64,000 nt of DNA from Candidatus Hecatella orcuttiae (GCA_002011035.2 MTLY02000002.1:417130-481129); one strand, 5' to 3'. Positions 473 to 16,717 are shown, counted from the first letter of the stretch. Notes: generated by a model from the letters alone, not told the origin. Translations and numbers: made by a program.

Positions 473-682
473 ATGCCTGTCCCCAAGGGCTACCCTGTGA
501 GGATCACCCGGTGGAGCAGCACCAGCCGGGTGAAGAGAGGCCGGAAGAAATACTGGAAGCTCGTCTTGAACTTCCCTCAGAAGATGGCCCCGGAGCTGGA
601 GGACCTCTTGGGCAGGCCGGCTGTGGCTTGGAGGGAAGGCAGCAGGGTCATCATCCAATTTCAGCTAGCTGGGAACCCCTGA
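473..682 (+). CDS. Small basic protein, possibly AbrB/MazE-like DNA-binding
   Basis: 69 aa; beta-beta-helix-beta-beta pattern (KLVLNFPQKMAPELEDLLGRPAVAWREGSRVIIQ); SD-like GAGGGG upstream. Confidence 0.4.
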   Translation: MPVPKGYPVRITRWSSTSRVKRGRKKYWKLVLNFPQKMAPELEDLLGRPAVAWREGSRVIIQFQLAGNP

Positions 683-1011
683 GGGAGAACACCCCGCCTC
701 CACGCCTCCTTCCACACGTCCATGTAAATCCCCCTCATATCCTCACACCCCTCCCGTTTTCCCAAGGGGGCTTCTCGCTAGCGGAGGCAAATTCCCCCAG
801 CCCCCGACTTCCCCACCCTTCACAGGGCTGTGTCGAAAACCCTAAAAGCCCACCCATGCCCTAGGGAGGTTGCTGAAAAGGGTCGGGTGCACCGGAAACC
901 CAGCCGCTGGAACCCGCAGGCCTTGGGGCCGGCGGGGCATGGGGCGGCCTTCCGCCTAAGCCAGCTTCCTTTCTCACCCGGCCTTCAGGGTTTTCTCCGA
1001 GGTGACGGCTT

Positions 1012-1203
1012 CTGGGAAGTCATCGGAACCTCTACCTCCGCCACCTCCGCCGGGAGGCGGAGAGGCTGTTCAAGGAAGCCTACCACGACCGGGAGAAGGC
1101 GGAGCTGGTGGCCCTAGCCGACTACCCGCTGCTGGACATCCGGAGGGGGGAGGTGCTGCGAAACCCCCACTACGTCAACCCCAGCCTGGAGCGCCTCCTC
1201 TGA
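1012..1203 (+). CDS. Small hypothetical protein with CTG start (63 aa)
   Basis: GAGGTGA SD at 999-1005, CTG at 1012; reads MGSHRNLYLRHLRREAERLFKEAYHDREKAELVALADYPLLDIRRGEVLRNPHYVNPSLERLL with C/G-ending codons like neighbouring genes. Confidence 0.6.
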   Translation: MGSHRNLYLRHLRREAERLFKEAYHDREKAELVALADYPLLDIRRGEVLRNPHYVNPSLERLL

Positions 1204-2012
1204 CAGCCCGGCCCAAAGGCCGGTGGGGTCTCCCCCACAGGCTTTTCCAAGGCCCCGCCTACCAGGGCGCCGCCGGGCCCGTGGCTGTGGAGGCGGACGA
1301 GGAGAAGATAGCCCTCCGTCTTCAAGCCTACCGGCTCTGGCCCCAGCGGACGGTGGTGGACCTCTACGCGGGGAAGGGCTTCCTCAGCTGGCTCTACGCC
1401 CGGGAAGGCTGTGAGCGGCTCATCTGCGTGGAGAAGAACCCTGAATATTTTGCGGTGTTGAAGCGGAACTTGGCGGAGTTCGGTGAGAGGGTGAAGCTGG
1501 TCCGGGCGGACAACCTCCGATGGCTGGAGCGAGGTGGGCTGTCCCCCGAGGAGCCGGTGACCTTCGTGGACTTCGACGCCTTCGGCATCCCCGCCCGGCT
1601 GCTGCAGCGGTTCTTCACCGTCCACCCCATTCGGAGGGCTTTGGTGATGGCGGTCACCGACGGGCTGCTGTTCAACTTCCGGCGGATGAGCAACGCTGAC
1701 CTCCGTAGGCTTTACCTGCAGGATTTTTATTTGGGCGGCGAAGCCGGGCGGCCGCTGAGCATCCAAGACCTGGGGGAGTACGCTTTCCAGATCCAGCGGA
1801 CGCTGCTGGACATCTTGGCCATGCGCCACGGAGCCCAAGCCTACCCTCTCTATTTCAAGGTGAACCGCCGCTGCACCGTCGCCTACTCCGCCTATTTGGT
1901 CCTGCCCAAATTCGTGGGCGCTGTGGACTTTAAGCGCTATGTAGGTTTGAGGAGGGTGAAGACGGGGAGTGCCGCAGTATCCTTCGAGGGAAGTCTTGGA
2001 CAGGCTGGCTAG
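1200..2012 (+). CDS. SAM-dependent methyltransferase-fold protein
   Basis: Motif I VVDLYAGKG, acidic ICVEKN, motif IV-like FVDFDAFG. Start placed at CTG 1200 (CTGA overlap with the upstream stop); the Pro-rich 1002-1199 extension in the ORF track looks spurious. Confidence 0.65.
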   Translation: MTARPKGRWGLPHRLFQGPAYQGAAGPVAVEADEEKIALRLQAYRLWPQRTVVDLYAGKGFLSWLYAREGCERLICVEKNPEYFAVLKRNLAEFGERVKLVRADNLRWLERGGLSPEEPVTFVDFDAFGIPARLLQRFFTVHPIRRALVMAVTDGLLFNFRRMSNADLRRLYLQDFYLGGEAGRPLSIQDLGEYAFQIQRTLLDILAMRHGAQAYPLYFKVNRRCTVAYSAYLVLPKFVGAVDFKRYVGLRRVKTGSAAVSFEGSLGQAG

Positions 2013-2367
2013 GCTTCAGCCGGACCACTACGTGGAGGTCACGTGGAGCGACGCCTGCGAGATGCGGGACGCGACTCCGGAGGACATCGAACGCGACTAC
2101 CACACCACCATCCTGTGCTCAGGCCGGGTGTACGGGGTCCGAGGCGACTACCTCATCCTCGTCAGCGAGGAAACCTTCTACGGCTACCGGTTCCTCAGCA
2201 TCCCCATCGGCGTCATCCAGAAGCTGCGCATCCTCACCCGGAAGCCGCGGAAGAGGCCCCTCCGCATCCTCAAGGCCGGAGTCGCCTACAAGGTGGTCTA
2301 CGTCTATGTCAAGCCCGGGGAAAAGTCTCAGGTTGACGTTAAAGGACTTCGCCTTGTACGAGCATGA
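1969..2367 (+). CDS. Hypothetical viral protein (beta-rich, VxWxDA motif)
   Basis: 132-aa ORF overlapping both neighbours; VEVTWSDA...CSGRV...YLILV...SIPIGVI pattern resembles small phage proteins. Confidence 0.55.
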   Translation: MPQYPSREVLDRLARLQPDHYVEVTWSDACEMRDATPEDIERDYHTTILCSGRVYGVRGDYLILVSEETFYGYRFLSIPIGVIQKLRILTRKPRKRPLRILKAGVAYKVVYVYVKPGEKSQVDVKGLRLVRA

Positions 2368-2905
2368 CTGGAGGGGCATCATCGCCCTCACCCTCGTCGC
2401 AGGGTACATCCTCCTCCTCTGGGCTCAGGTTCCCGGCATCGAAGTCCTCTCCGTGGCCGTCGGCCTGGTGGTAGGCTGGTACTTCGGCCTCCAGCAGCAC
2501 CCCCAGCCCCGGCCGTGGGCGGAGCCGTCGGTTCCCCTCAAGCTCCGGCGGGCGACGGTGAAACATCCGGCGTTCAAATCCATCAAAACCCGACTGGTCG
2601 AAGCCCTCCGGCAGACGGGCTGCTACGACCCTGCCTTCGACGATATGGTGGTCGACGAGGTTGTTAAGTCCATCATCGACATCCGCACTGTTGACCGCTA
2701 TGTGGAAGGCGCCAAAGACCTCCGGGAGCTCGCTGAGGCCTTCAACGCCAAGGCGACTATAACCCGAATACTCTACCAAGCTGTGGAGCAACTGGCCGTA
2801 ACTCGGCGAGGCCGGCTGAAGAGAAAAGACATGGAAGGCTTCAAGGACACTCTCTTCACCCGTCTCAGGGAGCTGACATCCGCATCCGAGAACAATGCGC
2901 GATAG
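2306..2905 (+). CDS. Two-TM N-terminus joined to a helical domain, putative terminase small subunit
   Basis: Two hydrophobic segments (GIIALTLVAGYILLLWA; VLSVAVGLVVGWYFG). Helical C-domain ends EQLAVTRRGRLK, resembling the LGLTP..R end of P27-family TerS; located upstream of TerL. Alternative start TTG at 2333. Confidence 0.5.
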   Translation: MSSPGKSLRLTLKDFALYEHDWRGIIALTLVAGYILLLWAQVPGIEVLSVAVGLVVGWYFGLQQHPQPRPWAEPSVPLKLRRATVKHPAFKSIKTRLVEALRQTGCYDPAFDDMVVDEVVKSIIDIRTVDRYVEGAKDLRELAEAFNAKATITRILYQAVEQLAVTRRGRLKRKDMEGFKDTLFTRLRELTSASENNAR

Positions 2906-3132
2906 TGGCATATGGTGGCATGGTTTTGGGCGGAAAGACGAGGGTTAATTTAACGCTCGACAGCCTTCTGGTCAAAGCCATCGACCAGGTTCGCGGCCCC
3001 ATCAGCCGGAGCAGCTTTATTCAAGCGCTGATCGAGGAGGCTCTGAAGAGTGTTCCCCGTGAGCGTCGAAGAGGCTTGGCTAAGGGCGAGGAGAGATCCA
3101 AGCTTCTTCGCGGGGTGGCTGCTCAGGCTTAG
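2905..3132 (+). CDS. Ribbon-helix-helix (CopG-like) regulator
   Basis: KTRVNLTLDSLLVKAIDQVRGPISRSSFIQALIEEAL matches the RHH pattern. Confidence 0.75.
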   Translation: MAYGGMVLGGKTRVNLTLDSLLVKAIDQVRGPISRSSFIQALIEEALKSVPRERRRGLAKGEERSKLLRGVAAQA

Positions 3133-4372
3133 GCCCACAGCCTACCAGGCCAGGTTCCTCACCGACATGAGCAAGCGGCAGGTGTTGAAGTGGAGCCGGC
3201 AGAGCGGAAAGTCCACCTGCCTCGCCGTCAAAGCCTTGTGGTTCGCCATCTTCCACCCTCAAACCACCACCCTTATCATCTCTCCGTCTCTCAGGCAGTC
3301 GATAAACTTGAGGGATATTGTCGCCGGCCTCGTCGAAAGGCTGCCCCAAGATGCCAGGAAGAACTTGGTGGAGAAAACCTTGAGAACGACCCTCTACCTC
3401 TGGCGGGGCAGCCGCATCCTCGCACTGCCCGCAAACCCAAACACGCTCCGCGGCTTCACGGCTCACATGGTCCTCGTCGATGAGGCGGATTTCTTCCAAA
3501 ACCCTGAGGCCATCTTCTACGGCACCGTTTACCCCATGCTGACCACCACCGACGGCTGGCTGATAGTCAGCTCCACCCCATGGACCACCAAGGGCTTCTT
3601 CCACCGCATCTGCCAGCCCGGCAGCGGCTACACGCACCACTTCATCAACTGGCGCGACGCGGTGCAGGCGGGAGTGGCCCGGGAGGCGGTTATCCGCGAG
3701 GCCATGGAACGCAACCCGCCGGAGGTCTTCCGCAGGGAGTACGAGTGCGAGTTCGTGGAGGACGTCGACGTCTTCCTGCCCTCGGACCTCATCGCCCGCT
3801 GCATCGACTCGCAGCTGGAGTACACGCCCTTCGAGGCTGAAGCCCGGGGTGAGTTCTACGTGGGATGCGACTTCGGCAAGCACCAGGACTACTCGGTGGT
3901 GGCCGTGGTGGAGAAAAAGGACGACGTGATTTCCCTAGTCCACCTTCACAGGTTTCCACTGGAGACCCCCTACGCCTCGGTCATCGGCTACGTGAAAGCC
4001 CTGTGCGACCGGTGGCGCAGCGTCGCCGCGGTGCGCCCTGACATGACCGGGGTGGGCGACTTCATCGTGGAAGAAATGCAGCGGGCTGGAATCCCCAGCG
4101 TGGAAGGCGTCAAGTTCACCCGCGAAAGCAAAGAGGCCATAGCCGTGCCGGTGAAGCAGGCTATGATTTCAGGGCGTGTTCGCATCCCCTACGACCGGGA
4201 CCTCATCGCTGAGCTCAACGTGGAACGCTATGAGATGTCGAAAGACGGCCACTATGTTTTCAGCCACCCCGAGCGAAGCCACGACGACCGCTTCTGGGCC
4301 TTCTGCCTCGCCGCCCACGCCGCCCTCGGCAGGGGCGAAGGAGGAGCCATCATAGGGGGTGTCCGTCGATGA
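3050..4372 (+). CDS. Terminase large subunit
   Basis: Q motif TAYQ, Walker A SRQSGKST, Walker B VLVDEAD, motif III SSTP, RNase H-like nuclease GCDFGKHQDYS and HDDRFWA. Confidence 0.95.
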   Translation: MFPVSVEEAWLRARRDPSFFAGWLLRLRPTAYQARFLTDMSKRQVLKWSRQSGKSTCLAVKALWFAIFHPQTTTLIISPSLRQSINLRDIVAGLVERLPQDARKNLVEKTLRTTLYLWRGSRILALPANPNTLRGFTAHMVLVDEADFFQNPEAIFYGTVYPMLTTTDGWLIVSSTPWTTKGFFHRICQPGSGYTHHFINWRDAVQAGVAREAVIREAMERNPPEVFRREYECEFVEDVDVFLPSDLIARCIDSQLEYTPFEAEARGEFYVGCDFGKHQDYSVVAVVEKKDDVISLVHLHRFPLETPYASVIGYVKALCDRWRSVAAVRPDMTGVGDFIVEEMQRAGIPSVEGVKFTRESKEAIAVPVKQAMISGRVRIPYDRDLIAELNVERYEMSKDGHYVFSHPERSHDDRFWAFCLAAHAALGRGEGGAIIGGVRR

Positions 4373-5580
4373 CCCTGTGGGGAAAAATCAAAAACTGGTT
4401 CACCGCCAGCGAAGCCCAAGGCTTGGAGGAGAAAGCCCGAGGCCTCGTCGCCGGGGTCCCTTCCGTCTGGGGCCGAGGGCAGAAGGCACCCTTCAGCTTC
4501 CAAACCTGCTTCGAACGCTACGAGAACGTAGGCTTGGTCACCGCGGCTGTGGACGCTACAGCGGAGATGATCGCAGGCCCAGGCTACCACACCGAGGGCG
4601 TCGGTGAAGCCAAGCGTGTGGTGGACGACTTCGCGGAGGAGGTCAACCTCGACGGCCTGCTCATGGACGCGGTGCTGGACTGCGCCATCTGCGGCAACTC
4701 GTGGGTGGAGAAGGTGGTGGAGGACGGCCTCATCGTCGGCCTCAACTACCTCGACCCACTGAGCATGGAGCAGAGCATCATCCTCAAGAAGGCCCCCGGA
4801 GGCTTCGACCTCTACCACAACCAGGTGGAAGGCTACGTGCAGACCGTCCGAGGCAGGAAGACAGCCCAGTGGCCTGCGGACCGCATCATCCACTTCACCT
4901 GGAACCGGCCCCGCGGCAGCCTCTACGGCACAGGCATGGTGAAGCCTGTGGAAGCCTACCTGCAGACCATCCTCGAAGCCGAGCAGGACATGGGCAAGAT
5001 CATCAAACGCTACGCCGCCCCCAAGGTGGCTTGGATGCTGCAGGACGCGGGGAAGACGGTTTTCGACGAGGTGAAGCGGCAGCTCCGCACCGTGCAGCCG
5101 GACGAGGACTACGTCATCGCCACCACCGGGAAGACGAGAATCGACGCCCAAGTCATCCAGATTGACCCCCGCAGCCGCTTCGAGTACTTCTTCAACCACA
5201 TCACCAACGCCATCATGGCCGGGTTGGAGTGCCCCATCACCTTCCTCTTCCGCGGCGACGTGAGGGTCTCAGACGCCTCCGCCACGGCCATGCTTCAAGC
5301 CTTCGACCGGAAAATCCGCATGAAGCAGCGCCGGTTCAAACGCATCATCGAAGCCCAGCTTTTCCGCCCGCTGGTCCGGCAGCACGGCCACAGCGAAGTC
5401 CCCCGCCTGGTCTGGGGACCTGTGGAGGTGGAGACCTTGGAGGACAAGCTCAAGAAGTGGACGGAGCTGCTTTCCAGCCGCCTCAGCCTCAGGGATGAAA
5501 CCCGCCGCGCCCTCGAGGATGAAATGATGAAAGACCTAGGCCTTCAGTCTACCGCAGAAGAGAGGAGTGAAGATGCCTAA
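4369..5580 (+). CDS. Portal protein
   Basis: Follows TerL with ATGA overlap; GNSWVE, IIHFTW...LYGTG pattern; 403 aa. Confidence 0.9.
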   Translation: MTLWGKIKNWFTASEAQGLEEKARGLVAGVPSVWGRGQKAPFSFQTCFERYENVGLVTAAVDATAEMIAGPGYHTEGVGEAKRVVDDFAEEVNLDGLLMDAVLDCAICGNSWVEKVVEDGLIVGLNYLDPLSMEQSIILKKAPGGFDLYHNQVEGYVQTVRGRKTAQWPADRIIHFTWNRPRGSLYGTGMVKPVEAYLQTILEAEQDMGKIIKRYAAPKVAWMLQDAGKTVFDEVKRQLRTVQPDEDYVIATTGKTRIDAQVIQIDPRSRFEYFFNHITNAIMAGLECPITFLFRGDVRVSDASATAMLQAFDRKIRMKQRRFKRIIEAQLFRPLVRQHGHSEVPRLVWGPVEVETLEDKLKKWTELLSSRLSLRDETRRALEDEMMKDLGLQSTAEERSEDA

Positions 5581-6319
5581 GCATCCTGACTTCGAAAAAA
5601 TCCACCGCGACTTCCTAAGCCGCTACGGAGCCGAGGAGGGGGAAAGACGCTACTACGCCTGGCTCCGCAGCCGCAGCCTCGACGACACCCAGCCCTTGGG
5701 CTCCCAGCGCGCTAAGCTGGAGGAAGGCACCGCCTTCCAGTGGGCTAACACCCTCGACTGGGTGGGGCAGCCCAACCGCATCCGAGGCCTCGCCCTCACC
5801 CCCGGCTCCAGCCTCAACCGCAACCTCTACCCGGAGGAGGAGCTGGCCAAGGCAGCCAGAACGCTGGCGGGGAAACCCATCTACGTCAACCACCTCCACA
5901 CCGGGACAGCTGTCCCCGGGCAGGCTCAGCCGCAGGTAGGCCGGGTGCTGGACGCGGAGTACATCCCCGGCCGAGGCATCGAATACGTGGGCGCCGTCGA
6001 AGACCCCGCTGTTTGGAGGCTCATCCGAAGCGGCCTGATCACAAAGGTGAGCGTGGCGGGAAGATGCCGCTCCGCCCTCCCCGTCGACGGGGTGAAGCCG
6101 GAGGGGCTCATGTTCGAGGAGCTGAGCCTCCTCTGGGGGGAGGAACAGCCCGGTGTCCCCGGCGCCTACGTCCAAGTTTGGGAAAAGCTCAGCCCCAGGG
6201 GAAGGGCGAAGCCGCTGGGCCTAGGCCTCCGGGAAGGCCCTGAACCCGCGCAGCCGCCCACTCCAGACCTTTGGGGGGCTAGGCTGAGGGACGTGCTGCC
6301 TTCCAAGGCAAGGCGGTGA
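5567..6319 (+). CDS. Prohead (capsid maturation) protease
   Basis: IRGLAL..G.SLNRNLYPEEEL..AA..L.GKPIYVNH...VGRV...KVSV...FEELSLL...PGVP pattern; lies between portal and capsid genes. Confidence 0.8.
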   Translation: MKMPKHPDFEKIHRDFLSRYGAEEGERRYYAWLRSRSLDDTQPLGSQRAKLEEGTAFQWANTLDWVGQPNRIRGLALTPGSSLNRNLYPEEELAKAARTLAGKPIYVNHLHTGTAVPGQAQPQVGRVLDAEYIPGRGIEYVGAVEDPAVWRLIRSGLITKVSVAGRCRSALPVDGVKPEGLMFEELSLLWGEEQPGVPGAYVQVWEKLSPRGRAKPLGLGLREGPEPAQPPTPDLWGARLRDVLPSKARR

Positions 6320-6334
6320 AGCTGATTTTTCACG

Positions 6335-6418
6335 GTCACAGCCATGACGGCAGCCCAGCCGCGTCGGTTGGGCCTACGCCGGAGCTTGACGGCTGAGGGG
6401 GATACTCCCCTGCCTTAG
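6335..6418 (+). promoter_or_regulatory. Structured intercistronic RNA with a canonical kink-turn
   Basis: AGC-CAT-GA-CGGC (6340-6351) pairs with GCCG-GA-GCT (6378-6386); apical 9-bp hairpin GCCCAGCCG/CGGTTGGGC; basal GTCA/TGAC; second hairpin GGGGA-TAC-TCCCC. Confidence 0.6.
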
Positions 6419-6450
6419 TGTGGGAGAGCAAAAGTTTGGGAGAAAGAAAC

Positions 6451-6858
6451 ATGACCAGTCAAGGCGACGTGTACACCCTAGGCATCGTGCTAGACCTCAG
6501 AGCCGGAGGAGCCATCGCCAAAGGAGAACCTGTCAAAACCGGCGCCGCCGACGGCAAGGTTGTCGCAGCCTCCGACGGAGACGACCCCGTAGGCGTGGCC
6601 CTGAAGGCCGCCAGCGCCGACGGAGACCCCGTGCCCGTCATGGTTTCCGGAGCCGTCTACCTGACGGCCGCCGCGGCCATCAGCCGGGGGGAAGCCGTTC
6701 AGCCGGCGGGGTCCCAGAAGGTGAAAGCCCTCGCCGACCAGCCGGTGGACGAAGGAGGCACCGCCACCTACACTGTCTACTACCAGAAGAAGCTGGGCAT
6801 CGCCTTGGAAGCCGCTTCCGCGGACGGAGACGTCATCCTCGTCCAGCTGGCCCTCTAA
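6451..6858 (+). CDS. Capsid decoration/cement protein (DUF2190-like)
   Basis: Ala/Gly-rich AGGAIAKGEPV...VGVA...GDPVPVMVSG...AAAISRGEAV...LGIALEAA; next to the MCP gene; ATG at 6451. Confidence 0.8.
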   Translation: MTSQGDVYTLGIVLDLRAGGAIAKGEPVKTGAADGKVVAASDGDDPVGVALKAASADGDPVPVMVSGAVYLTAAAAISRGEAVQPAGSQKVKALADQPVDEGGTATYTVYYQKKLGIALEAASADGDVILVQLAL

Positions 6859-6872
6859 GGCGGTGAAGCGCC

Positions 6873-7862
6873 GTGCAGAAGATTCTAGAAACAGGAGTTA
6901 AGGTGGCTAAGGAAGACATGGCTGTTCGAAGGCTGGAGGAAAAACTTCAGACTCCCCTGCTTTCAGGGCGGACCCTCCACGAAGCCCAGCGGGTCCTCCA
7001 CCAGCGCACCGAAGCCATGCTTAAAGACCGACATCTCCGCGAGGTCCTCCTAAGCGACCAGTCGCAGGCCACGGCCAAGGTTCTGGACATCGTCTGGGAG
7101 GCGGCCAAGCCCCGGCTCATCGGCCGGGAGCTCTGCGCGGTCTTCGTCAAGGAAGACCCGTCCCTGAAGGTGCCCCGGCATAAGACCTTGGTCTCAGCCC
7201 GCTACCCGGTGGCGGAGGGCGCTGACATCCCTGTGAACGTGGGAGCTTTCGACTCGGTGACCCTGACCCCTGAAAAGTCCGGGGTAGCCGTGCCCATCAG
7301 CCGGGAGATGATCGAAGACGCCGCGTGGGATGTCGTGGAGTTCCAGCTCCGCGAAGCCGGCCGAGCCATGGCCGAGGTGGAAACAGAGCGGATCATCGCC
7401 CAGATGATCGCTGACGCAGGGAACTCCGCGGCTGCAGCCACAGCTGGGACGCTGGCCTACGACGACATCGTGGGCATGATCAACCTCATCCAAGCCGACA
7501 ACTTCCTCCAAGACTACATCCAAACCGGCCGAGGCTACTTGGTGGTGCACCCCGACCAGTACGCCGACCTCCTCAAGGACTCCAGCGTGAAGCAGGCTCA
7601 CTCTTGGGGCGGCATCGCCGTGGCGCCCACAGGCCGCTTGGAGACCATCTTAGGCCTCAACCTCCGGGTGACCACCAAGATCACCAGCGGCACCGCCCTG
7701 GTCGTCGACGCGGAGCACGCGGGAGCTCTGTTTATCCGAAGGGACATCACCGTGGAAAACTACGAAGACCCGATTAAGGACCTGGCCGGAGCCGTGCTGA
7801 CAGCCCGGTGGAAGTACGCGACGATGCAGGCGAACGCCATAGGCAAGATCACAGGAGCCTAA
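6873..7862 (+). CDS. Major capsid protein (HK97 fold)
   Basis: VAEGADIP, VTLTPEKSGVAVPISREMIEDAAWDVVE, LVVHPDQYADLLKD, TILGLNLRVT motifs; 329 aa; GGTGA SD. Confidence 0.92.
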   Translation: MQKILETGVKVAKEDMAVRRLEEKLQTPLLSGRTLHEAQRVLHQRTEAMLKDRHLREVLLSDQSQATAKVLDIVWEAAKPRLIGRELCAVFVKEDPSLKVPRHKTLVSARYPVAEGADIPVNVGAFDSVTLTPEKSGVAVPISREMIEDAAWDVVEFQLREAGRAMAEVETERIIAQMIADAGNSAAAATAGTLAYDDIVGMINLIQADNFLQDYIQTGRGYLVVHPDQYADLLKDSSVKQAHSWGGIAVAPTGRLETILGLNLRVTTKITSGTALVVDAEHAGALFIRRDITVENYEDPIKDLAGAVLTARWKYATMQANAIGKITGA

Positions 7863-7885
7863 GCCTAAACCACCCGTTTTCTTCC

Positions 7886-8424: not shown

Positions 8425-8742
8425 ATGGGCTATTCAACTCTGAACGCTGTCAAAGAGCGCTTGGGCATCGACCCAGCGGACACCACCCAGGACACGGTGC
8501 TGACCAACAAGATCGCCGCGGCGGACGCCATCATCGACAACGTCCTCCAAGCCTACACGGACGTACCTCTGGCTTCGCCGCCTCAGCTCATCCAAGACAT
8601 CAGCGCCGACCTAGCCGCAGCGCTCTACCGCGAAGACCGAGGCCCCCCGGAGGCCGGCGGCGCATTCCGCCAGCGGGCTGAGAAGGCTTTGGAAGCCTAC
8701 ATCACCCAAACCTACCGCCAAGTAGGATTCGAAAAAACTTAG
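8425..8742 (+). CDS. Head-tail adaptor/connector (gp6-like)
   Basis: YSTLNAVKERLGI...QDTVL...AADAIIDNVL pattern; GAGGTGA SD; position after MCP. Confidence 0.8.
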   Translation: MGYSTLNAVKERLGIDPADTTQDTVLTNKIAAADAIIDNVLQAYTDVPLASPPQLIQDISADLAAALYREDRGPPEAGGAFRQRAEKALEAYITQTYRQVGFEKT

Positions 8743-8759
8743 ACGGCTGAAGGCTGAAG

Positions 8760-9188
8760 ATGGCCACCGTCAAGGTTGATGCCTCCGCAGCCCGCCGCCT
8801 GCTGGAGGCCTTGAAAGAACACTCCGACAGGGTTCAGGCTGAGTTTCTCCGGCAAGGCGCCCGGCTGACGGTGGAGGAGATGAAGCGGAAGGCTCCCGTG
8901 CGAACAGGCGCCCTGAGGCGGTCGATAGGCGTCAGGGCGGTGGAGGGAGGTAGGGTTGCCGTCAGCCCCGCGGTGCCCTACTGGCACGCGGTGGAACGAG
9001 GAGCCAAGCCGCGGGTAATTCTCCCCAAGCGGGGGAAGGTTCTTGCCTTTGAAGTCGACGGCCGGCCGGTGTTCGCCCGCCGGGCCCGGTGGCCAGGGTT
9101 TCCGGGGCGTTTCTTCGTCAGGGCGACGGAGCAGGCTGTGAGACCCAAGCTCCGGCAGCTGCTACTCCAGTTGATGAAGAAGCGTTGA
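8760..9188 (+). CDS. HK97 gp10-like neck/tail-completion protein
   Basis: APVRTGALRRSI...YWHAVERGA...PG.PGRFFVRA signature. Confidence 0.85.
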   Translation: MATVKVDASAARRLLEALKEHSDRVQAEFLRQGARLTVEEMKRKAPVRTGALRRSIGVRAVEGGRVAVSPAVPYWHAVERGAKPRVILPKRGKVLAFEVDGRPVFARRARWPGFPGRFFVRATEQAVRPKLRQLLLQLMKKR

Positions 9189-9263
9189 CATCTTCCGCAT
9201 GGTCGGATGAAAATTTCCTTTCGAACATACTAAACAGTTCTTTTCCAGTGGACGGGAGACATC

Positions 9264-9684
9264 ATGTACAAGGAGATTGTGCAGAAAATCATCGACCTGC
9301 TGAAGGCGGACGCCGCCCTCTCGGAGCCGGCTAAGGTGAAAAAGTATTACTTCGGCATCCCCCCCGGAGGCGAAGGCCGGCTACCCGTGGGTCAGCGTCC
9401 GCTGGGCGGGGGGTCCCGTCGAAACCGAGACAGCCCGGAAGGAGCGGTACCAGATGGATTTTGAGATCAGGGTGGTGGACCAGTCCTACCGGGAGGACAC
9501 GGCGGAGAAGTCGGTGATGGACCTGGTGGAGGACATCGACCGGGTGCTGGACGCTAACCCCACGCTGGACGGGCTGGTGGACGACTGCCGCATCGTCAAC
9601 ATCGCCTCAGAGACCATGGCCTCAGGCTCCTACGCCCTAGTGGGCGCCCTCATCACCCTCACGGCTAGGAAAACACAGCTCTAA
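9264..9684 (+). pseudogene. Tail terminator-like protein split by a 1-nt frameshift in a C7 run
   Basis: ORFs 9264-9464 and 9454-9684 join into about 139 aa (...YYFGIPP-EAKAGYPWVSVRW...YQMDFEIRVVD...) if one C is removed from 9359-9365. Confidence 0.7.
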
Positions 9685-9703
9685 AAGGAGGTGAAACAGG
9701 CAA

Positions 9704-10630
9704 ATGGCTGAAAGATACATAGTAGTAGGCGAAGAAACCACCTTCGGCTCGCCGGTGACCCCTGACAAGTACATCGACATCCGCCGGGAGGCTGTGGTTT
9801 TCGACGTCGGCGTCATCCCCGTCGAAACCGTGTACAGCCGGGACACCCGCAAATACGTGTTCGGCAAGGCCCTAGCCCGAGGGCCCATCGACTTTGCCGT
9901 GGAGCCGGAGAACGTGGCCCACCTGTTCAAGTGGGCGCTGGGCAGTGTGACTACCAGCGGGGCAGGACCCTACACCCACGACTTCACCCCGGCGGACACC
10001 GTGAAAAGCTTCACCGCCATCATCAACCCGGAGCAGGAGACCTACGGCTTCTTCCGAAAACTCAGCGGCTGCCTGGTGGAGCGGCTGACCCTCGAATCCG
10101 CCCTCGACGTGCTCACCGGCTCCGTGGAAATCGTGGCAGCAAAGGAAGAAAAAGACACAGCCTTCACTCCGTCGGTTTCCCTCTCCCCGCTGGCGCCCTT
10201 CGTCTTCCACGAAGCCACCCTGACACTGGGCGGTGCCGACAAGTCCAGCGTCCTCAAAGCCTTCAGGCTGACGGTAGGCAACAACCTGCCCGTCGACGAC
10301 ATGTACGCCCACGGCGACAAGCATCTACGCCGCATCCTCGTGGGCCGGCGGGAGGTGGAGGTGCAGATGGAGCTGGCCTTCGAGGACTCCGCGGACTACG
10401 ACCGCCTGCTGGCGGGGACGGAGGTGGCGGCTTCCCTCAGCTTCGTCAAGACCGCGGGCAGCGCTGAGCTGCTCATCGACCTCCCCCGCATGGTCTACCA
10501 CAGCGACGTGGCGCCGCACATCGCGGGAAGGGACCCCTTCACCGTCGTGGCCCCCTGCCAAGTGCTCTACGACTCCGCCGCCGGCTATGAGGTGAAGATT
10601 CAGGTCAAAAACAACGTGGCCGGCTACTGA
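9704..10630 (+). CDS. Major tail tube protein
   Basis: VVGEETTFGSPVTP N-terminus, YTHDFTP, SGCLVERLTL, VGRREVEV; strong GGAGGTGA SD; 308 aa. No sheath gene, so a non-contractile tail. Confidence 0.85.
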   Translation: MAERYIVVGEETTFGSPVTPDKYIDIRREAVVFDVGVIPVETVYSRDTRKYVFGKALARGPIDFAVEPENVAHLFKWALGSVTTSGAGPYTHDFTPADTVKSFTAIINPEQETYGFFRKLSGCLVERLTLESALDVLTGSVEIVAAKEEKDTAFTPSVSLSPLAPFVFHEATLTLGGADKSSVLKAFRLTVGNNLPVDDMYAHGDKHLRRILVGRREVEVQMELAFEDSADYDRLLAGTEVAASLSFVKTAGSAELLIDLPRMVYHSDVAPHIAGRDPFTVVAPCQVLYDSAAGYEVKIQVKNNVAGY

Positions 10631-10657
10631 CCGCCAAGAGTTTTCAGGTGAACGGAC

Positions 10658-11252
10658 ATGTCTGCGGAGACGCCTGCAAGAAGGCTCAGTGTGAAGGAAT
10701 GGCGGGAAAGCCTAGTCCGCACGGTGGAGGCGCCCAGCGGGCTGACCTACCAAGTCCGCCTGCTGACCTCGCCCCTCCCCTTCCTGAGGCTTCTCCGAAA
10801 GCACGGCTTAGAAGGCGTGGGGGAAGCTCAGGCGGAAAGCTTGGATGTGGCTGAGAAGTCCGACGCCCTGCTGAGGGACCTCTTCGCCGAATACGTCCTA
10901 AACCCCAAGGTGGCGGAGGGCGGGGGAGCTGAAGGCGAAGAACGCTTGGCTTTCTCGGAGATGCTGGAGGAGGACAAGGCAGTCCTCTTCAACGCCATAG
11001 CCGAGAAGTTCCGTTTTCTTCGCAGCGAAGACAGCCAGCCCCCTCACCCCAGCCCTGCTGGGGGAAGCTCTCCTCCTCCTAGGCGGGCTGCTGGGGGAAG
11101 CCTACCACCGCCTCCCCAGCCGGGTTCTCGCCCTCCCAGCCGAGGAGCTGGCTCTCAACTGGACCTGCCTCCAAGAGGCTAAGAGGGCCTTGGCCCAAGC
11201 CTCCAGCCTCAGCGCTGAGATCCGTCGACGCCGGGGGGAGCTGGGCCTCTAG
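10658..11252 (+). CDS. Tail assembly chaperone pair (gpG/gpGT-like) with candidate +1 frameshift near 11015
   Basis: The 0 frame turns Pro-rich and low-complexity after AEKFRF (stop at 11182). The +1 frame from 11016 is open to 11252 and protein-like (FFAAKTAS...GEAYHRLPSRVLALPAEELALNW...). Confidence 0.65.
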
Positions 11253-11262
11253 CAGGTGGACG

Positions 11263-11508
11263 GTGGAGGATGTGAAGCTTCGAACCGGCTTGGGAGCCGT
11301 CTTATGGGCGGTGGGCGTGGGGCTCATGGCGGAGAAGCTGCTTCGCTACGGGGCTCTCTACACCTATCCTCCCCACCTCTTGGACCACGGCCTCTACGGC
11401 CTCATTTTGGTCGCCTTATCCCTGCTCCTGCTGTCCAAGCAGGAGAAGCCGGTCCGGGGTGGGGCTCTCCGAAGGCCGGAGGACGGAGTAACCGCGGCCG
11501 GAGGCTAG
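11263..11508 (+). CDS. Small two-TM membrane protein (holin-like?)
   Basis: Two hydrophobic helices and a basic C-terminus; AGGTG SD. Confidence 0.5.
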   Translation: MEDVKLRTGLGAVLWAVGVGLMAEKLLRYGALYTYPPHLLDHGLYGLILVALSLLLLSKQEKPVRGGALRRPEDGVTAAGG

Positions 11509-11565
11509 GTTTTCAAGTCTGGAAACCAGATGGCGTAGCTTCCGCACTTCCAGCAGCGGCTGCCG

Positions 11566-11868
11566 GTGACGACGAACAGGCGGCCGCCTTTGATTTCAAC
11601 CTTGGTGTCTCCTGGTATTTCCCTGACCTCCCCGCAGGAGGCGCATTTGACCTTCATGGCCTCCCCTAAAATGATTCGCGAAACTCAGCCCTTTAACTCT
11701 TTCAGCAACCCCGGTCCTTGGGTGGTGAAGACGGCCGCGGAGCAGATAGGTGACATTCTGAAAAACGCCAGGGACCTAGGCTACAGGCTGCTGGTCATCC
11801 AAACCCGCAGCCGGCTGTTCGCTGTCCCCCTCAAATCCATCCGAGAGGTTAGGCTGGTGAAAAAATGA
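11566..11868 (+). CDS. Hypothetical protein
   Basis: ORF coupled to the tape measure gene by an ATGA overlap; start uncertain. Confidence 0.45.
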   Translation: MTTNRRPPLISTLVSPGISLTSPQEAHLTFMASPKMIRETQPFNSFSNPGPWVVKTAAEQIGDILKNARDLGYRLLVIQTRSRLFAVPLKSIREVRLVKK

Positions 11869-13211
11869 GCGCAGAGCAAGCCCGCGTCGCCATCATCCTC
11901 GAAGCCCAGAACAAGGCCAAAGCCGTCCTAGCCGAAGCCCAACGGGACGTGCGCAGCTTCAGCCAGCAGGCACAGGCCTCAGCTCGAGGCGCCGGCCAAG
12001 CAGCCGACCGCATGGGCCAACGCATGGCCGCGGCCGCCCGCACCAGCCAAGTCAGCTTCAGCCAAGTCTCCATGGGCATGACCACGCTGGCCGCCAGCGC
12101 CATGAACCTCTACAACGCCTACGACCGCATCGGCACCGTGCAAGCCCGGGTGGCCGCCCTCCAAGCCAGCTACAAGGCGGCTCAGGACGCTGTGGCCGCC
12201 GCCCAGCTGAGGCTGAACAAGCTGGCTGAGGCGGGAAAAGAAGGCAGCGAGGAATACCGCATCGCCCAGGAGAAACTGGCCACCGCCCAGCAGCGCCTCG
12301 CCGCCTACGAGGTGAACAAAGCCTACATTCAGATGGCCATGTCGGTGCTGCCGGCGGTGATGGGCAGCATGCAGGCGCTGCAGGGCATGAAGGGCATGGG
12401 CGGCCTGGTCTCCGTCGCCCCCAAGGTGGTGGCGGCCATGCACAGCATCCGCACCGCCTCCTACGGAATGCTCGGCCCCTTAGGGCTGCTGATCGCCGCT
12501 GCTGCGACCCTCTACCTGGCGTGGACCCAGAACTGGGGTGGGATCCGCGAAAAGGTCGGCGCGGTGGTGGAGTGGTTCAGCAGCGTCTACACCCACTACA
12601 TTCAGCCGACGTTGGAGGCGATTGTGGGTGGTTTCCAGTGGCTGGCGGACAGGGTGACGTGGCTTTGGGACCGCACCCTCGGCCCCATCGTGGAAGGCGC
12701 CAAGAGGCTCTACGACGCCTTGGTTGGACGGTCCGTCTTCCCTGAGCTCATGCACCGTCTCGAAGCCGTCACCGCCAAGGGGCTGGGGGAAACCGTGGCC
12801 CTCTGGCATTTCGCCTCCCACCGCATCGCCGCCTACACCCAGGCCATCTTGGCCAAGATGACCGTGTCCCAGAAGGCAGCTAGGTTCTTCGCTGAAACCG
12901 CTGTGGCTCCGGCCTTGGCTCGGGGAGGCTTCGCCGGGGTCACATCCCGCGGCCAAATCCTAGCCGCCAGCATCCCTCGGGCTGAGTATCTCCGGGGCTT
13001 GGAGGAAAGCCTCCGCGTCAGCCGGGAGGTCTACGGCTACGGCCCTGAGCATCCTGCGGTGCGGCGCTATGAGGCCGCCATCGCCGAGGTCAGAGGCATC
13101 ACCATCATCATGAACAACCAAATTCAAAGCCCCGCCGACGAGGTCCGCCTTGCCAAGCGGGTGGGCGTGGCGGTGGTGGACGCTGCAACCCTCAGGAAGG
13201 GACCCCTCTAA
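11865..13211 (+). CDS. Tail tape measure protein (short, 448 aa)
   Basis: Ala/Gln-rich coiled coil, AWTQNWGGIREK motif, periodic aromatic residues, LVGRSVFPELM motif; follows the chaperone genes. Confidence 0.85.
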   Translation: MSAEQARVAIILEAQNKAKAVLAEAQRDVRSFSQQAQASARGAGQAADRMGQRMAAAARTSQVSFSQVSMGMTTLAASAMNLYNAYDRIGTVQARVAALQASYKAAQDAVAAAQLRLNKLAEAGKEGSEEYRIAQEKLATAQQRLAAYEVNKAYIQMAMSVLPAVMGSMQALQGMKGMGGLVSVAPKVVAAMHSIRTASYGMLGPLGLLIAAAATLYLAWTQNWGGIREKVGAVVEWFSSVYTHYIQPTLEAIVGGFQWLADRVTWLWDRTLGPIVEGAKRLYDALVGRSVFPELMHRLEAVTAKGLGETVALWHFASHRIAAYTQAILAKMTVSQKAARFFAETAVAPALARGGFAGVTSRGQILAASIPRAEYLRGLEESLRVSREVYGYGPEHPAVRRYEAAIAEVRGITIIMNNQIQSPADEVRLAKRVGVAVVDAATLRKGPL

Positions 13212-15044
13212 ATGGCCCGATTCACCGTCAAGATAGCCGGCGTGGACTACCCGTTCACAGCCCTGACCCTCCGCCAGTCGGTTGACCCCCCTGACGAGTT
13301 CACCGTGGAGCTGCCCAAGGTGGAGGCAGCGCCGGCCTTCGAAGACCCCGTGGACATCTACAGGGACGGGGTGAAAATCTTCAGCGGCCTCCTGGAACGC
13401 CGGCAGGCGGTGTTCGGGGAGGAAGGCGAGAGGCTGGTCCTAGGGTCTAGGGACCTCAGCCAGAAGCTGTTCCGCCACCTCACCGGCGCGCAGACGTGGA
13501 CTGAGACCAAAGTCCGCACCATCCTCCAAGACCTCATCGCCGGCACAGGCCTGACCGAGGGGGCGATCGCCGACCCCTTCCAAGTGTGGCACCGGTGGCT
13601 TCAGACCACGGACGCAGACTTCGGCGGCGACGTCCTGACGGATGTGGAGGTTGCTGGGACGGGGACGGCGGCTAAAGTCGTGCTAACCTACGCGGGTGCA
13701 ACCAAGACAGGAAACATCAAGTCGACGTTGATAGCGCCTGTAAACTGGCAAAGTTGGATTGAATTTAATGCTGCTGTGGATGAAAAAAACCAAACCATCA
13801 CCTTCGACATCTTGGATTCGGCGGACAACACGCTTGTAGGCGGCATCACACCAGCTCAGCTGCCCTACGACCTATCCGCCCTAGCAGAGTCATCCCTAAA
13901 GGTCAGATGCAACCTGACGGCAGCCCCTTGGGTTGATGGAACCGCCCTAGAAAGCAGCACGGGTGTCATTTACGCATCATATCCTCGGCGAGGCCAGAAG
14001 ATTACTGTGCCCAACAAAACCCTCCACACAATAATTTTCGCCATCCACAAGGAAGGCAGCCCCACCGGTACGGCGTATCTGAGGATAAGAAGAACCTCAG
14101 ACGATTCGATTATCTACGAGGAAAGCTTCGACGTTGCCTCTCTTCCTACCGATTCTGGGAATTGGCAGGTTTTCAAACTCACTAATCCTCCTACCGTCAA
14201 CGAAGAAGTTAGAATTATGGTTGAATATTATGGCGGCTCCACTGACAACTGGATCAGGATGAGACGTTACAGAAACTCCTACGGGGAAAACTGGGAAGGC
14301 GTCGAAACAAGCTACGATGGAACAGCCTACACGGACGACAGCACCGCCGACAGCAACATCGTCATCCACGACAAACCCAGCCCCGAACTCCTAGAATGGT
14401 CCGTCACCCACCACAGCGACTACACCGACTTCACCGTGGACTACGAATACCGGTTTGAAGCCGTCAACCGGCTGGCCGCCATGCTGGGAGCCGAATGGTG
14501 GGTGGACTCCGCGGGAGCCCTCCACTTCCAACCCCAAAGGGGCTCCGACCTTTCTGGGACGGTGCGCTACCAAGCGGAGCGGGATGTAACCGTCTCCCGG
14601 GTTACGGAAACCTTCCAGCTGGCCAACCGTATCACCGTCATCGGAGCCGGGGAAGCTGCCAGCCGGGTGGAGGAGACGGAGGAAGACCCGGCTAGCCAGG
14701 CAGCCTATGGGCTGCATGAAGCCGTCTACGTGGACAAGGAAATCGACACCGCGGACGCAGCTAGGACCACGGCTCAGAACCTCCTAGCCAAGTACAAGGA
14801 CCCCGTGGAGAAGATCGTCCTCCAAGTCCTCCCCGTCTACGACTTCCAAGTAGGCGACATCATCACCGTCACCGACCCCCACACCGGGCTGGAGGGCAGC
14901 TACCGGGTGAAGGTCAAGACCATCAGGTTCACAGCCGAAGAAGGGGAGCAGTGGGAGCTGGAGCTGGCCACCCGCCTCACCGACCTCCCCGACGAACTGC
15001 TCAAGACAGGCCAGCTGCAACGCTGGCTCAAGGGGTTAGCCTGA
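13212..15044 (+). CDS. Tail tip/baseplate hub protein with inserted beta-rich domain
   Basis: Hub motifs (VDIYRDGVKIFSG; LAAMLGAEWWVDSAGALHF; NRITVIG; SQAAYGLHE; FQVGDIITV) flank an AT-richer insert at about 13700-14400. Confidence 0.75.
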   Translation: MARFTVKIAGVDYPFTALTLRQSVDPPDEFTVELPKVEAAPAFEDPVDIYRDGVKIFSGLLERRQAVFGEEGERLVLGSRDLSQKLFRHLTGAQTWTETKVRTILQDLIAGTGLTEGAIADPFQVWHRWLQTTDADFGGDVLTDVEVAGTGTAAKVVLTYAGATKTGNIKSTLIAPVNWQSWIEFNAAVDEKNQTITFDILDSADNTLVGGITPAQLPYDLSALAESSLKVRCNLTAAPWVDGTALESSTGVIYASYPRRGQKITVPNKTLHTIIFAIHKEGSPTGTAYLRIRRTSDDSIIYEESFDVASLPTDSGNWQVFKLTNPPTVNEEVRIMVEYYGGSTDNWIRMRRYRNSYGENWEGVETSYDGTAYTDDSTADSNIVIHDKPSPELLEWSVTHHSDYTDFTVDYEYRFEAVNRLAAMLGAEWWVDSAGALHFQPQRGSDLSGTVRYQAERDVTVSRVTETFQLANRITVIGAGEAASRVEETEEDPASQAAYGLHEAVYVDKEIDTADAARTTAQNLLAKYKDPVEKIVLQVLPVYDFQVGDIITVTDPHTGLEGSYRVKVKTIRFTAEEGEQWELELATRLTDLPDELLKTGQLQRWLKGLA

Positions 15045-15045
15045 G

Positions 15046-15261
15046 TTGAAGCTCCGCAATCCCCGCAGCCGCCCCTACCAAGTCACCGTCCGAGGCCGAA
15101 GGTGGGTGATCCCGGCTAAGGCGGTGGTGGAGGTCCCCGACAGGCTGGCGGAGGCCATCCTCGCCACCCGGGCCTCCCGCTTTCTCCAGCAGGAGAACCC
15201 CCCTGTCTCCGACCTCCAAGAGGAGGTAAGGAGGATCAAGGCCTACCTGAGGTTGAGGTAG
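15046..15261 (+). CDS. Hypothetical protein
   Basis: 71-aa ORF filling the gap between the two tail-tip genes. Confidence 0.55.
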   Translation: MKLRNPRSRPYQVTVRGRRWVIPAKAVVEVPDRLAEAILATRASRFLQQENPPVSDLQEEVRRIKAYLRLR

Positions 15262-15262
15262 C

Positions 15263-16717
15263 ATGACGGCTCCCAAGGTCAAAATCGGCATGGACAGCAA
15301 CACCCTCGACCTGCTGGCCGCGGGCAACGTCCACCGCCTAACCCGCCATCCGCTGAAGACCTTCAGCCGCCGGAAGGTGGCCGGAGGCGAAGTGCACCTG
15401 CCCAGCCTAGGCCCCGCTGAAACCCTTCACATCCTCGAAGGCTGGCTGGACGGGTCGGAGGCGCAGGCCAACCTCCAGAAGCTGCTAAACCTCTACCACA
15501 GCCAAGAGCTCACCGCCTTGGAGACGGCGAAATACGAGGCCTTCGGCAAGCTTACGGACTTGGAGATTCCCTACCAAGGCGGAGAGACCGCCGTCCGCTA
15601 CCGCCTCGAACTCACCGAGCTGCCGGCTTGGGGCCGCACAGCGGTCAACCAGGGCACCGACGCCTACTTGGCTGACTTAGACTACGCGGCTCTGCGCAGC
15701 CAGCTGTTCAGCCCCCTCTGGGCCCGGCATGGATGGAGCTGGGACCGCGGCGGGAAGAAGTTCGCCTACGAATTCATCCTCGTCAACGCCCTCGAGGAAA
15801 CCTCACCTGCGGTTCTCTACGACGACGATGAGGCGTTTTGGTCGACGACGGGATGGGGCTCAGGCTCCAGCGCTGCCTCCCTGACCGAGGAGTCAACCGT
15901 TGTGAAGAAGGGAACTTCGTCAGCCAAAGTCTCCCAGACATCCGGCTCCTACGATGTGTTCGGAATCTACCACAGCTGGGCCGCAGGGCAGGACTGGTCT
16001 GGCTACGAGTTCGTCGCCCTCTGGCTTTACGGCTCCAACAGCGGCGGAAAGATGGCCCTAGACATTAGGGCGCCTGATGCCTCCAACAAATACTTCGCTT
16101 ACATCGACGACACTTGGACGGGGTGGAAGCGGCTGGTTTACCCGTTGAGAGCTATGCCGAAAGTCGGGTCGCCGGATTTGACAAACGTCAAAGCCGTCTA
16201 TCTCACCACCGACGAGGGCAACCCATGGGCTCCCTTCTACCTCGACCGCATGGTGCTGGACGTGGGCCAGTGGGTTGCGGTGGAGGTCTTCGTCCCTGAC
16301 ACGCTAAACACGGCCGATATTAATGTGCGCCTGTATTCATGGGATGGGTCCGGCTGGGTCGTCGGCCCCGGGGTGGAAGCCACAGACCTGAGCCCTTGGT
16401 CTGCCGGCGTAGACCTGTACTTCCTCGACGGCACAAAGGCGAGCGAAGCCTACGGAGGCAACTGGTACAACGACCAATTCGCCTACTACTCTCTAGGGGA
16501 GAGAGGCCAAACCCCCGGCAAATGGTCTTCACCGCCGCCAGACATCACCTACTCCCTCAACTACGGCTGCCTGAAACGCCTAGGCTTCGCCGTCAAAATG
16601 CCCCCCAGCACGCTGGCCCGCGACACCAGCGGCAGCCAAGCCGTCAACAAAACCCAGCTCAAGCTGGAAATCACCTACAACTCAGAGCACACCACCTACG
16701 TCGACGGAAGCCTCTAG
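15263..16717 (+). CDS. Distal-tail-like protein with carbohydrate-binding-module-like domain
   Basis: Dit-like N-terminus (LPSLGPAETLHILEG...YRLELTE); DWSGYEFVALWLYG...DDTWTGWKRLVYPL...DLTNVKAV...FYLDRM resembles galactose-binding/CBM11-like folds. Confidence 0.6.
   Translation: MTAPKVKIGMDSNTLDLLAAGNVHRLTRHPLKTFSRRKVAGGEVHLPSLGPAETLHILEGWLDGSEAQANLQKLLNLYHSQELTALETAKYEAFGKLTDLEIPYQGGETAVRYRLELTELPAWGRTAVNQGTDAYLADLDYAALRSQLFSPLWARHGWSWDRGGKKFAYEFILVNALEETSPAVLYDDDEAFWSTTGWGSGSSAASLTEESTVVKKGTSSAKVSQTSGSYDVFGIYHSWAAGQDWSGYEFVALWLYGSNSGGKMALDIRAPDASNKYFAYIDDTWTGWKRLVYPLRAMPKVGSPDLTNVKAVYLTTDEGNPWAPFYLDRMVLDVGQWVAVEVFVPDTLNTADINVRLYSWDGSGWVVGPGVEATDLSPWSAGVDLYFLDGTKASEAYGGNWYNDQFAYYSLGERGQTPGKWSSPPPDITYSLNYGCLKRLGFAVKMPPSTLARDTSGSQAVNKTQLKLEITYNSEHTTYVDGSL

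Follow-up and report, generated by a model that had tools for sequence, protein, structure and literature searches.

Gene content of the head-tail cluster

In a 64,000-nucleotide stretch of the genome of Candidatus Hecatella orcuttiae (hereafter the window; G000:C2:417130-481129), we analyzed a cluster of virus-like genes lying between a KaiC/GvpD-like gene and a tRNA-Ala gene. The source genome (G000) is archaeal and comprises 1.75 Mb in 3 contigs with ~52% GC; archaeal rRNA, signal recognition particle and RNase P RNAs are present farther along the window. Searches against Pfam and PHROGs revealed an unbroken gene run on the plus strand at window positions 1002-16717, which begins with a methyltransferase gene (MT) and ends with a fibre gene; the terminase, portal, capsid and tail genes lie between them in this order. 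The virion set of the siphovirus type of Caudoviricetes was complete, comprising the large terminase (TerL), portal, HK97-fold major capsid protein (MCP), tail tube and tape measure protein (TMP), and none of the cluster proteins scanned matched a sheath family. All open reading frames (ORFs) from MT to the fibre gene were uninterrupted, and their lengths were similar to those of homologs. Judged by its predicted products, 1002-16717 was confirmed as an intact siphovirus-type head-tail module. A preliminary description of this DNA had reported a complete head-tail module on one strand with a short tape measure, a KaiC-like gene to the left and tRNA-Ala to the right. All of the parts that it named were found on the plus strand, TMP has 448 amino acids (aa), and the flanks were recovered with Pfam (KaiC/GvpD) and Rfam (tRNA, 56 bits). 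The features of the locus are as follows (other G numbers denote related genomes or viral records).

1..349 (-): KaiC/GvpD-like ATPase gene, 5' part; left host flank, continuing into the upstream stretch L001:18924-20000 (the upstream part matches Pfam KaiC ATPase, E 4e-18, and GvpD_bR2, E 3e-12)
473..682 (+): 69-aa ORF; no Pfam or PHROG family, no tblastn match in the relatives' loci
1002..2012 (+): S-adenosylmethionine (SAM)-dependent methyltransferase MT, the element's conserved left-end gene (Pfam Cons_hypoth95 E 2e-5)
1969..2367 (+): g1969, 132-aa conserved small beta-barrel protein (76% identical in G001; AlphaFold pLDDT 69)
2306..2905 (+): g2306, 199-aa conserved protein (44-48% identical in G001, G005, G008 and G009)
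2905..3132 (+): g2905, 75-aa repressor-like small protein (phrog_4738 transcriptional repressor E 1.2e-4)
3050..4372 (+): large terminase TerL (Terminase_6N/6C E 3e-11 and 4e-11; phrog_2 E 4e-48)
4369..5580 (+): portal protein (Pfam E 3e-7, below Pfam's cut-off; phrog_9232 E 6e-19)
5567..6319 (+): probable prohead protease or scaffold, by position only (portal, then cement/MCP); no Pfam family; 60-62% conserved in G001, G005 and G009
6418..6858 (+): capsid cement (decoration) protein (Pfam Phage_cement_2 E 4e-13)
6873..7862 (+): HK97-fold MCP (Pfam Phage_capsid E 1e-11, Phage_capsid_4 E 1.6e-12)
8425..8742 (+): head-tail connector (Pfam/PHROGs), first gene of the block 8425..9684
8760..9188 (+): HK97 gp10-like protein (Pfam/PHROGs)
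between the gp10-like gene and the tail terminator, in the block 8425..9684 (+): 66-aa ORF
9454..9684 (+): tail terminator (Pfam/PHROGs)
9704..10630 (+): tail tube protein (Pfam Phage_tube_2 E 7e-28)
10658..11868 (+): putative tail assembly chaperone region, by its position between tube and TMP
11865..13211 (+): TMP, 448 aa (phrog_1272 E 2e-6)
13212..15044 (+): distal tail or tail-tip protein (Pfam Prophage_tail E 5e-11)
15263..16717 (+): tail fibre or receptor-binding protein (weak carbohydrate-binding-like CBM_11 match, E 2e-5, below Pfam's cut-off; 38% identical fibre in G002)
16772..16868 (+): tRNA-Ala(UGC), right boundary (Rfam tRNA 56 bits; anticodon loop UUUGCAA)

The true start of MT is probably near 1215, and a profile search against PDB indicated a class I methyltransferase with weak Trm5/TYW2- and RsmD-like matches (E 1e-7). 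To its left, the ORF at 473..682, which has no homolog in any related element, may be outside the element. The KaiC/GvpD-like gene has a 61% identical ortholog elsewhere in G001, without an adjoining cluster. In the putative chaperone region, conservation was limited to the N-terminal ~120-137 aa (G002, G005 and G009).

Weaker homologs of g1969 (about 30-33% identity) were present upstream of TerL in several distant relatives among the IMG/VR records. We considered g1969 as a candidate small terminase; its modelled fold is a small beta-barrel, and a Foldseek search of PDB gave nothing at E <= 0.001. Below that threshold, the best fold matches were weak and were to small beta-barrels, namely Sm-like proteins and chains of large ribosomal subunits; in Kunpengvirus, a bL19 homolog has been reported (Duan et al., PMC10848311). 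By sequence reading, the N-terminal part of g2306 is hydrophobic. The two genes overlap by 62 nt in different frames in both G000 and G001, and in G009 (L017:7753-8658) their homologs are in-frame and form one 301-aa ORF. This frame arrangement may reflect a programmed frameshift or a fusion.

Mobility genes, attachment sites and chromosomal state

As the preliminary description had stated, no cluster protein matched an integrase, helicase, primase or polymerase family in Pfam or PHROGs. That description had allowed for early genes to the left of the window, and these were rejected for the sequence just upstream, where the Pfam-scanned ORFs of the last ~14 kb were cellular or without a family. 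In this part of the 20-kb upstream stretch L001, 11 of the 13 larger ORFs scanned belonged to cellular families (LysE, LamB/YcsF, aminotransferase, LarC, LarB-like AIR carboxylase, two radical SAM proteins, VTT-like, NTPase, MEDS and KaiC/GvpD). Three scanned L001 ORFs had no family, and no integrase or replication gene was found among the last ~14 kb; the Pfam scan excluded the first ~5.4 kb of L001, and the next stretch upstream (L002) was scanned for RNAs only. An SSV-type split integrase was also rejected, because neither end of the element has a long enough ORF without an assignment.

Phage_integrase matched four times in G000, in each case on a contig other than that of the element. An island at G000:C3:298363-305939 (L206; 41-50% GC) encodes a 440-aa integrase and a 509-aa protein, the latter 28-39% identical to a conserved early protein of integrase-bearing IMG/VR relatives. 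We rejected the island and the element as a split virus or helper pair, because the island had no homolog in 13/13 other family genomes and hence is no constant partner. No integrase or replication gene flanked the elements of G001 or G002 on either side, and in the 100% complete G002 genome Phage_integrase matched only once, on a contig other than that of the element. Further, no integrase or replication gene directly adjoined MT in G005, G006, G008 or G009. About 4.5 kb upstream of the G009 element, at the contig start, an integrase gene and a second g2905 homolog lie beside a tRNA (L017:281-1342 and 2398-2470); this region may be part of another, integrase-bearing relative.

At the right boundary, tRNA-Ala(UGC) begins 55 bp past the fibre stop and carries about 25 extra bases in its D-loop, a non-canonical intron position. 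ARAGORN with default settings detected no tRNA in the whole window; genome-wide it detected 24 tRNAs without and 43 with the intron search. The earlier observation that the tRNA end is not duplicated was upheld, in that no word of at least 12 nt was common to the tRNA junction and the element or the 40 kb upstream, and the best short-word match at the junction was 10 nt (E 0.15). Directly 3' of the tRNA, a low-GC segment (44-50%; window 16876-18441) contains an AAA_14/DUF4143 ATPase gene and ends in a 38-nt perfect palindrome (18404-18441), where the assemblies of four runs stop. The segment may be the remnant of another insertion at tRNA-Ala. The contig break at 18404-18441 was rejected as a second att site, because it is this palindrome and contains no copy of the tRNA end.

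In Logan contigs of four runs from three studies, the element was joined to the upstream host DNA without a break; note that two of these studies may be the source of the assembly and that contigs do not make rare forms visible. The contigs of all four runs ended inside the 3' part of tRNA-Ala. Read depth of the element was like that of flanking contigs in X1, X2 and X5, and in X4 it was about 1.45x that of the downstream contigs. No contig skipping the element, circular joint or empty site was present in the contigs of the four runs, in which rare forms are undetectable. Further, no relative has both G000 flanks together, and the KaiC ortholog of G001 adjoins tRNA-Phe (by sequence reading). 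A metagenome scan yielded six loci, none of which was a free genome or added a new context. G000 possesses two CRISPR arrays with 37-nt repeats (G000:C3:237818-239306, 20 spacers, and 699569-704008, 60 spacers), and the 80 spacers gave 0 matches to the genome outside the arrays or to the loci compared, which is uninformative.

The GC content of the cluster was 59-65% in 2-kb windows, and its four 5-kb windows rank in about the top 2% of the genome. The median GC content at third codon positions (GC3) was 0.79 in the cluster, 0.75 in the neighbourhood (cellular genes between about -11 kb and +47 kb) and 0.62 in the genome, and most cluster genes ranked in the genome's 96th percentile or higher. 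Thus, the codon-style match to the flanks that had been proposed holds only locally, not against the genome as a whole, and it does not discriminate between the readings considered below. Across relatives, element GC follows that of each host from about 35% to 62%.

Composition also varied farther along the window. Its last part (54000-64000, the contig end) has 34-41% GC vs 52% in the genome, and a similar low-GC island lies at C1 ~415-440 kb. The small-subunit rRNA match (47224-49392) spans 2169 bases vs a 1478-position model, and the large-subunit match (49914-53103) spans 3190 vs 2987, so the 16S gene may contain about 690 bases of extra sequence, an insertion or an intron.

Distribution, inheritance and viral relatives

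TerL homologs were found in 26 of the 41 related genomes searched, G000 included. MT was more restricted, being present in 8/14 genomes of one Bathyarchaeia family (6/7 genera) and in 0/387 genomes of the class's other families. In the named-genome collection, we found seven loci titled Candidatus Hecatellales, Bathyarchaeia or Bathyarchaeota archaeon. Wherever the context could be seen, the element started with MT-g1969-g2306-TerL and had no integrase beside it. This integrase-less, MT-led layout was observed in 3/3 fully bounded copies and in four further left ends from different genera. The contexts are as follows.

G000: left, KaiC/GvpD-like gene; element, 16.4 kb; right, tRNA-Ala
G001: left, UDP-glucose dehydrogenase; element, about 17-18 kb; right, DUF359 and an Rpb7/RpoE-like RNA polymerase subunit
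G002: left, tRNA (Leu by sequence reading); element, about 19.5 kb; right, pilin and DUF362
G005, G009 and G006: left, SPL-like radical SAM gene; contigs end within the element
G008: left, another cellular gene; contig ends within the element

The chromosomal position was thus not conserved across the family: the seven genomes have five left flanks, and only G005, G009 and G006 share one. Note that the median protein identity between G000 and G001 is 53% and that synteny is poor anyway at such a distance. Two copies adjoin tRNAs: in G000 the distance to tRNA-Ala is 55 bp, and in G002 a tRNA, Leu(CAG) by sequence reading, lies 76 bp away. The chance of this adjacency (2 of about ten element ends, given 43 tRNAs and ~1,600-1,900 genes) was about 0.02 by hand; a base-pair model, which takes no account of the placement of insertions between genes, gave 0.001. 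In addition, a DUF362 4Fe-4S gene lies between TerL and portal in G009 and G005 (L017:11908-12963; L019:8347-9303), and in G006 (L207:3463-4416), where TerL is missing, between the g1969 homolog and portal. Judged by its placement, this gene looks like cargo within the packaging module.

Vertical inheritance was most evident between G005 and G009, two species of one genus, in which the element and the adjoining host gene were collinear at the same locus with 81% nucleotide identity. Synonymous divergence (dS) between them was 0.43-1.12 in the element vs 0.85 in the host SPL gene and 0.71 in RpoB. The ratio of nonsynonymous to synonymous divergence (dN/dS) was 0.07-0.28 over 11 element genes; portal was left out of both ranges. 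The G005 element was intact across its recovered parts. Over a longer distance, MT identity and dN tracked those of host SPL nearly one for one in 10/10 pairs (G000, G001, G005, G009 and G006), and the MT tree largely agreed with the RpoB tree, the exception being a second G005 MT copy that groups with G002. Inside the core clade, TerL was in weak conflict with the host tree (approximately unbiased test, p 0.032 and 0.083). Host-congruent descent was therefore seen within one genus and for MT over four genera, and it fails for portal, MCP, protease and the tail modules. These comparisons suggest that the left-end backbone of the element has, at least in part, been passed down vertically under purifying selection in this family. 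The preliminary description had proposed orthologs at the same locus, host-congruent trees and low dN/dS as a check; this expectation was borne out by G005/G009 and by MT, not by the differing loci elsewhere in the family or by portal, MCP, protease and tail.

In IMG/VR, many contigs carried TerL 37-53% identical to that of G000 (the best, 53%), and six contigs carried MCP with 57-60% identity. The most complete TerL relatives were G049 (29.2 kb, 91% complete by CheckV) and G046 (30.6 kb, 82%), whose TerL was about 50-53% identical. In both, an integrase gene lies close to one end and TerL is preceded by roughly 9-10 kb of extra genes, which encode a metallophosphoesterase, a methyltransferase-like protein and a conserved protein of ~550 aa; the MT gene is absent. 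The structural module of G049, from TerL to the end of the record, spans about 16 kb, which is the size of the whole G000 element. An integrase was also present in two of the four MCP-60% records searched, and another record, G055 (28.2 kb, 83% complete), is MT-led without a Phage_integrase match. Because the more complete IMG/VR relatives carry an integrase and an early module, the simplest reading is that the MT-led lineage would descend from a temperate virus of the G046/G049 kind, without its integration and early half. Tail genes preceding TerL in distant records had seemed a sign of small circular genomes; we rejected this, because these records simply differ in linear gene order and none of five full records has terminal repeats. 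No end repeats were found in the close relatives, and the 15 IMG/VR records with reported ends are 'linear' or 'provirus'.

If early-half deletion left only a remainder of a provirus, that remainder might be inert and functionless, and intact in G000 only because the deletion is recent. The element is about half as long as the most complete relatives, its position beside a tRNA fits a past integrase-mediated insertion, lesions are present in G006, G007 and G009, and its GC3 lies at the top of the genome's range. Nevertheless, we consider an inert relic improbable. The same layout recurs in the bounded copies and the further left ends, and independent identical deletions are unlikely; dN/dS of 0.07-0.28 has been sustained over a dS of about 0.6 between G005 and G009, with G005 intact in its recovered parts; and GC3 resembles that of the neighbourhood.

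We also considered a complete minimal virus or helper-dependent mobile element, which would form its own particles and depend on a host or helper for replication and integration. This would account for the head genes common to the distant hosts G000 and G001, the two MT copies in G005, the two copies beside tRNAs and the MT-led record G055. We regard it as very unlikely, since no free form was found: the IMG/VR ends are as given above with a best TerL identity of 53%, none of the six metagenome loci is free, and no excised form was present in the contigs of the four runs. Further, the C3 integrase island is no constant helper, being without a homolog in the 13 other family genomes, and none of the 80 G000 spacers matches the element.

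Nature of the lineage and comparison with known systems

The cluster is best explained as the late half, with its virion and packaging genes complete, of a temperate archaeal virus of the siphovirus type, whose integrase and early half may have been lost or never carried. Because these are missing, the cluster would be fixed in the chromosome. In the genomes searched, the lineage is one of MT-led head-tail elements confined to one Bathyarchaeia family. That it is a grounded provirus lineage kept under selection is, in our estimate, about evenly balanced.

Several observations weigh against this reading. Among family members portal occurs as three types and MCP as two, G001 has a different connector-to-tape-measure block, and the proteases of G008 and G002 share 73% identity, against only 54% for their MTs. 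No two hosts compared are farther apart than G000 and G001 (RpoB 0.75), but their g1969 (0.76), TerL (0.73) and MCP (0.78) are about as similar, whereas between G005 and G009 these three genes diverge 2-3 times faster than RpoB; the head module would therefore have arrived in the G000 and G001 lineages, or been exchanged, after the host split. The TerL of G002 falls in another clade with IMG/VR contigs (100/100 support). Further, G005 has two MT copies, contexts vary between genera (at least five) and two copies adjoin tRNAs; contexts, duplicate MT and tRNA adjacency point to continuing mobility. Decay was also seen: TerL is missing between MT and portal in G006, portal has a stop and the protease is split in G009, and TerL has a stop in G007. 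These lesions are in draft metagenome-assembled genomes and could be assembly errors. Purifying selection could also stem from past infectious cycles, and, with respect to a role in gene transfer, MT was not found in 6/14 family genomes, among them one 97% and one 90% complete. The best explanation for the mosaic is that virion modules may now and then be replaced by recombination with related infectious viruses.

In a grounded provirus lineage of this kind, expression would allow the portal, protease, cement and capsid proteins to build a procapsid, into which the terminase would load DNA. A tail of roughly 65 nm would follow, made up of the connectors, tube, tape measure, tip protein and fibre; this length assumes the rule of thumb of about 0.15 nm per tape-measure residue. 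Because the element can neither excise nor replicate, any packaged DNA would necessarily be chromosomal. Such packaging could be a by-product resembling that of gene transfer agents (GTAs) or of lateral transduction, selected by the host or not, and a GTA-like role is plausible.

A true GTA would be more than this: a host-controlled, host-selected system that packages chromosomal pieces smaller than its own cluster and delivers them to relatives, like that of Rhodobacter capsulatus (RcGTA). The terminase-to-fibre layout of about 16.4 kb resembles the ~15 kb RcGTA region, no fully bounded copy has integrase or replication genes, and MT is restricted to the family yet frequent in it (8/14 vs 0/387). 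Inheritance at the same locus with host-like dS and dN/dS of about 0.1, co-divergence of MT with host genes, GC that tracks each host, and flank-like depth in 3/4 runs with no excised form are also consistent with a GTA. We nevertheless judge it unlikely, as portal, MCP, protease and tail modules are swapped and the G002 TerL groups in a separate clade, left flanks are of at least five kinds with two beside tRNAs, G005 has two MT copies, copies in G006, G007 and G009 are decayed, and MT was not found in 6/14 family genomes. A variant, in which a family-wide domesticated MT-led element works as a GTA and updates its head and tail modules from infecting relatives, appears doubtful to a similar degree. 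The domesticated system, which the preliminary description had rated as equally possible as a decayed provirus, stands in part: the absence of early genes among the ORFs scanned just left of the window, contigs of four runs without a circle or empty site, inheritance at one locus within one genus, purifying selection and family-wide clusters support it, and differing contexts, copies beside tRNAs, exchanged modules, a duplicate MT and decay do not. The pattern named there as contrary, a patchy distribution and virus-like phylogeny, was likewise seen in part; as for a circular or over-covered form, the four runs gave no joint, and X4 a depth of about 1.45x.

A family-wide archaeal head-tail lineage that is defined by sequence and lacks genes for self-propagation provides a concrete gene set for testing particle formation and DNA transfer, in a host group that is uncultured but abundant in sediment and subsurface. 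If the lineage were a GTA, it would be the first archaeal one with sequence-defined genes and, unlike RcGTA, would renew its modules from infecting relatives. If it is only a grounded provirus, archaea, like bacteria, would retain virion modules over the long term, and residents would exchange modules with the infectious gene pool.

GTAs are genetically well defined only in bacteria. To our knowledge, VTA of Methanococcus voltae is the only reported archaeal GTA, and its genes are not firmly assigned; it resembles the present element in its archaeal host and in its tailed particle, for which transport of host DNA has been proposed, and its host belongs to a different phylum. RcGTA and the alphaproteobacterial GTA clusters share a ~15-16 kb one-strand terminase-to-fibre cluster without integrase or replication genes, restriction to one lineage and, where tested here, vertical descent under purifying selection. 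They differ from the present element in its module swaps, genus-varying position, tRNA-adjacent copies and two MT copies in one genome, and the likeness is one of organisation and inheritance. RcGTA has a small head, random packaging and host regulation. The part of the GTA literature available in PMC13669383 gives the RcGTA region as ~15 kb and its small head as holding about 4 kb of DNA, and describes no Bathyarchaeia GTA.

Our searches of the literature on archaeal and Bathyarchaeia GTAs and proviruses found no such element described; supplementary tables of provirus surveys may list it. In the five papers found to mention both 'gene transfer agent' and 'Bathyarchaeota', neither term is in the title or abstract. 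Prophages have been reported in subsurface archaeal bins, the present element not among them (PMC5340873). 'Fuxiviridae' and 'Kunpengviridae' (PMC10848311) and the BATPV proviruses (PMC11705971) share the host class and Caudoviricetes hallmark genes and are set apart by the features described for them. Kunpengvirus is described as having genes for integration (an integrase) and replication (an MCM-like helicase and family B polymerase; PMC10848311), and 38 proviruses were sought beside MCP genes via two further genes and attL/attR (PMC11705971). The present element has no such genes or att sites. The IMG/VR records G046 and G049 are similar in TerL (50-53%) and in the ~16 kb structural module, and differ by their integrase, early genes and lack of MT. 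Among bacterial systems, PBSX of Bacillus subtilis packages random host DNA and enterobacterial cryptic prophages are vertically inherited, with functions such as killing and stress tolerance shown experimentally. Like the present element, PBSX and the cryptic prophages are phage-derived, unable to self-propagate and under purifying selection; they differ in being bacterial and unrelated in sequence.

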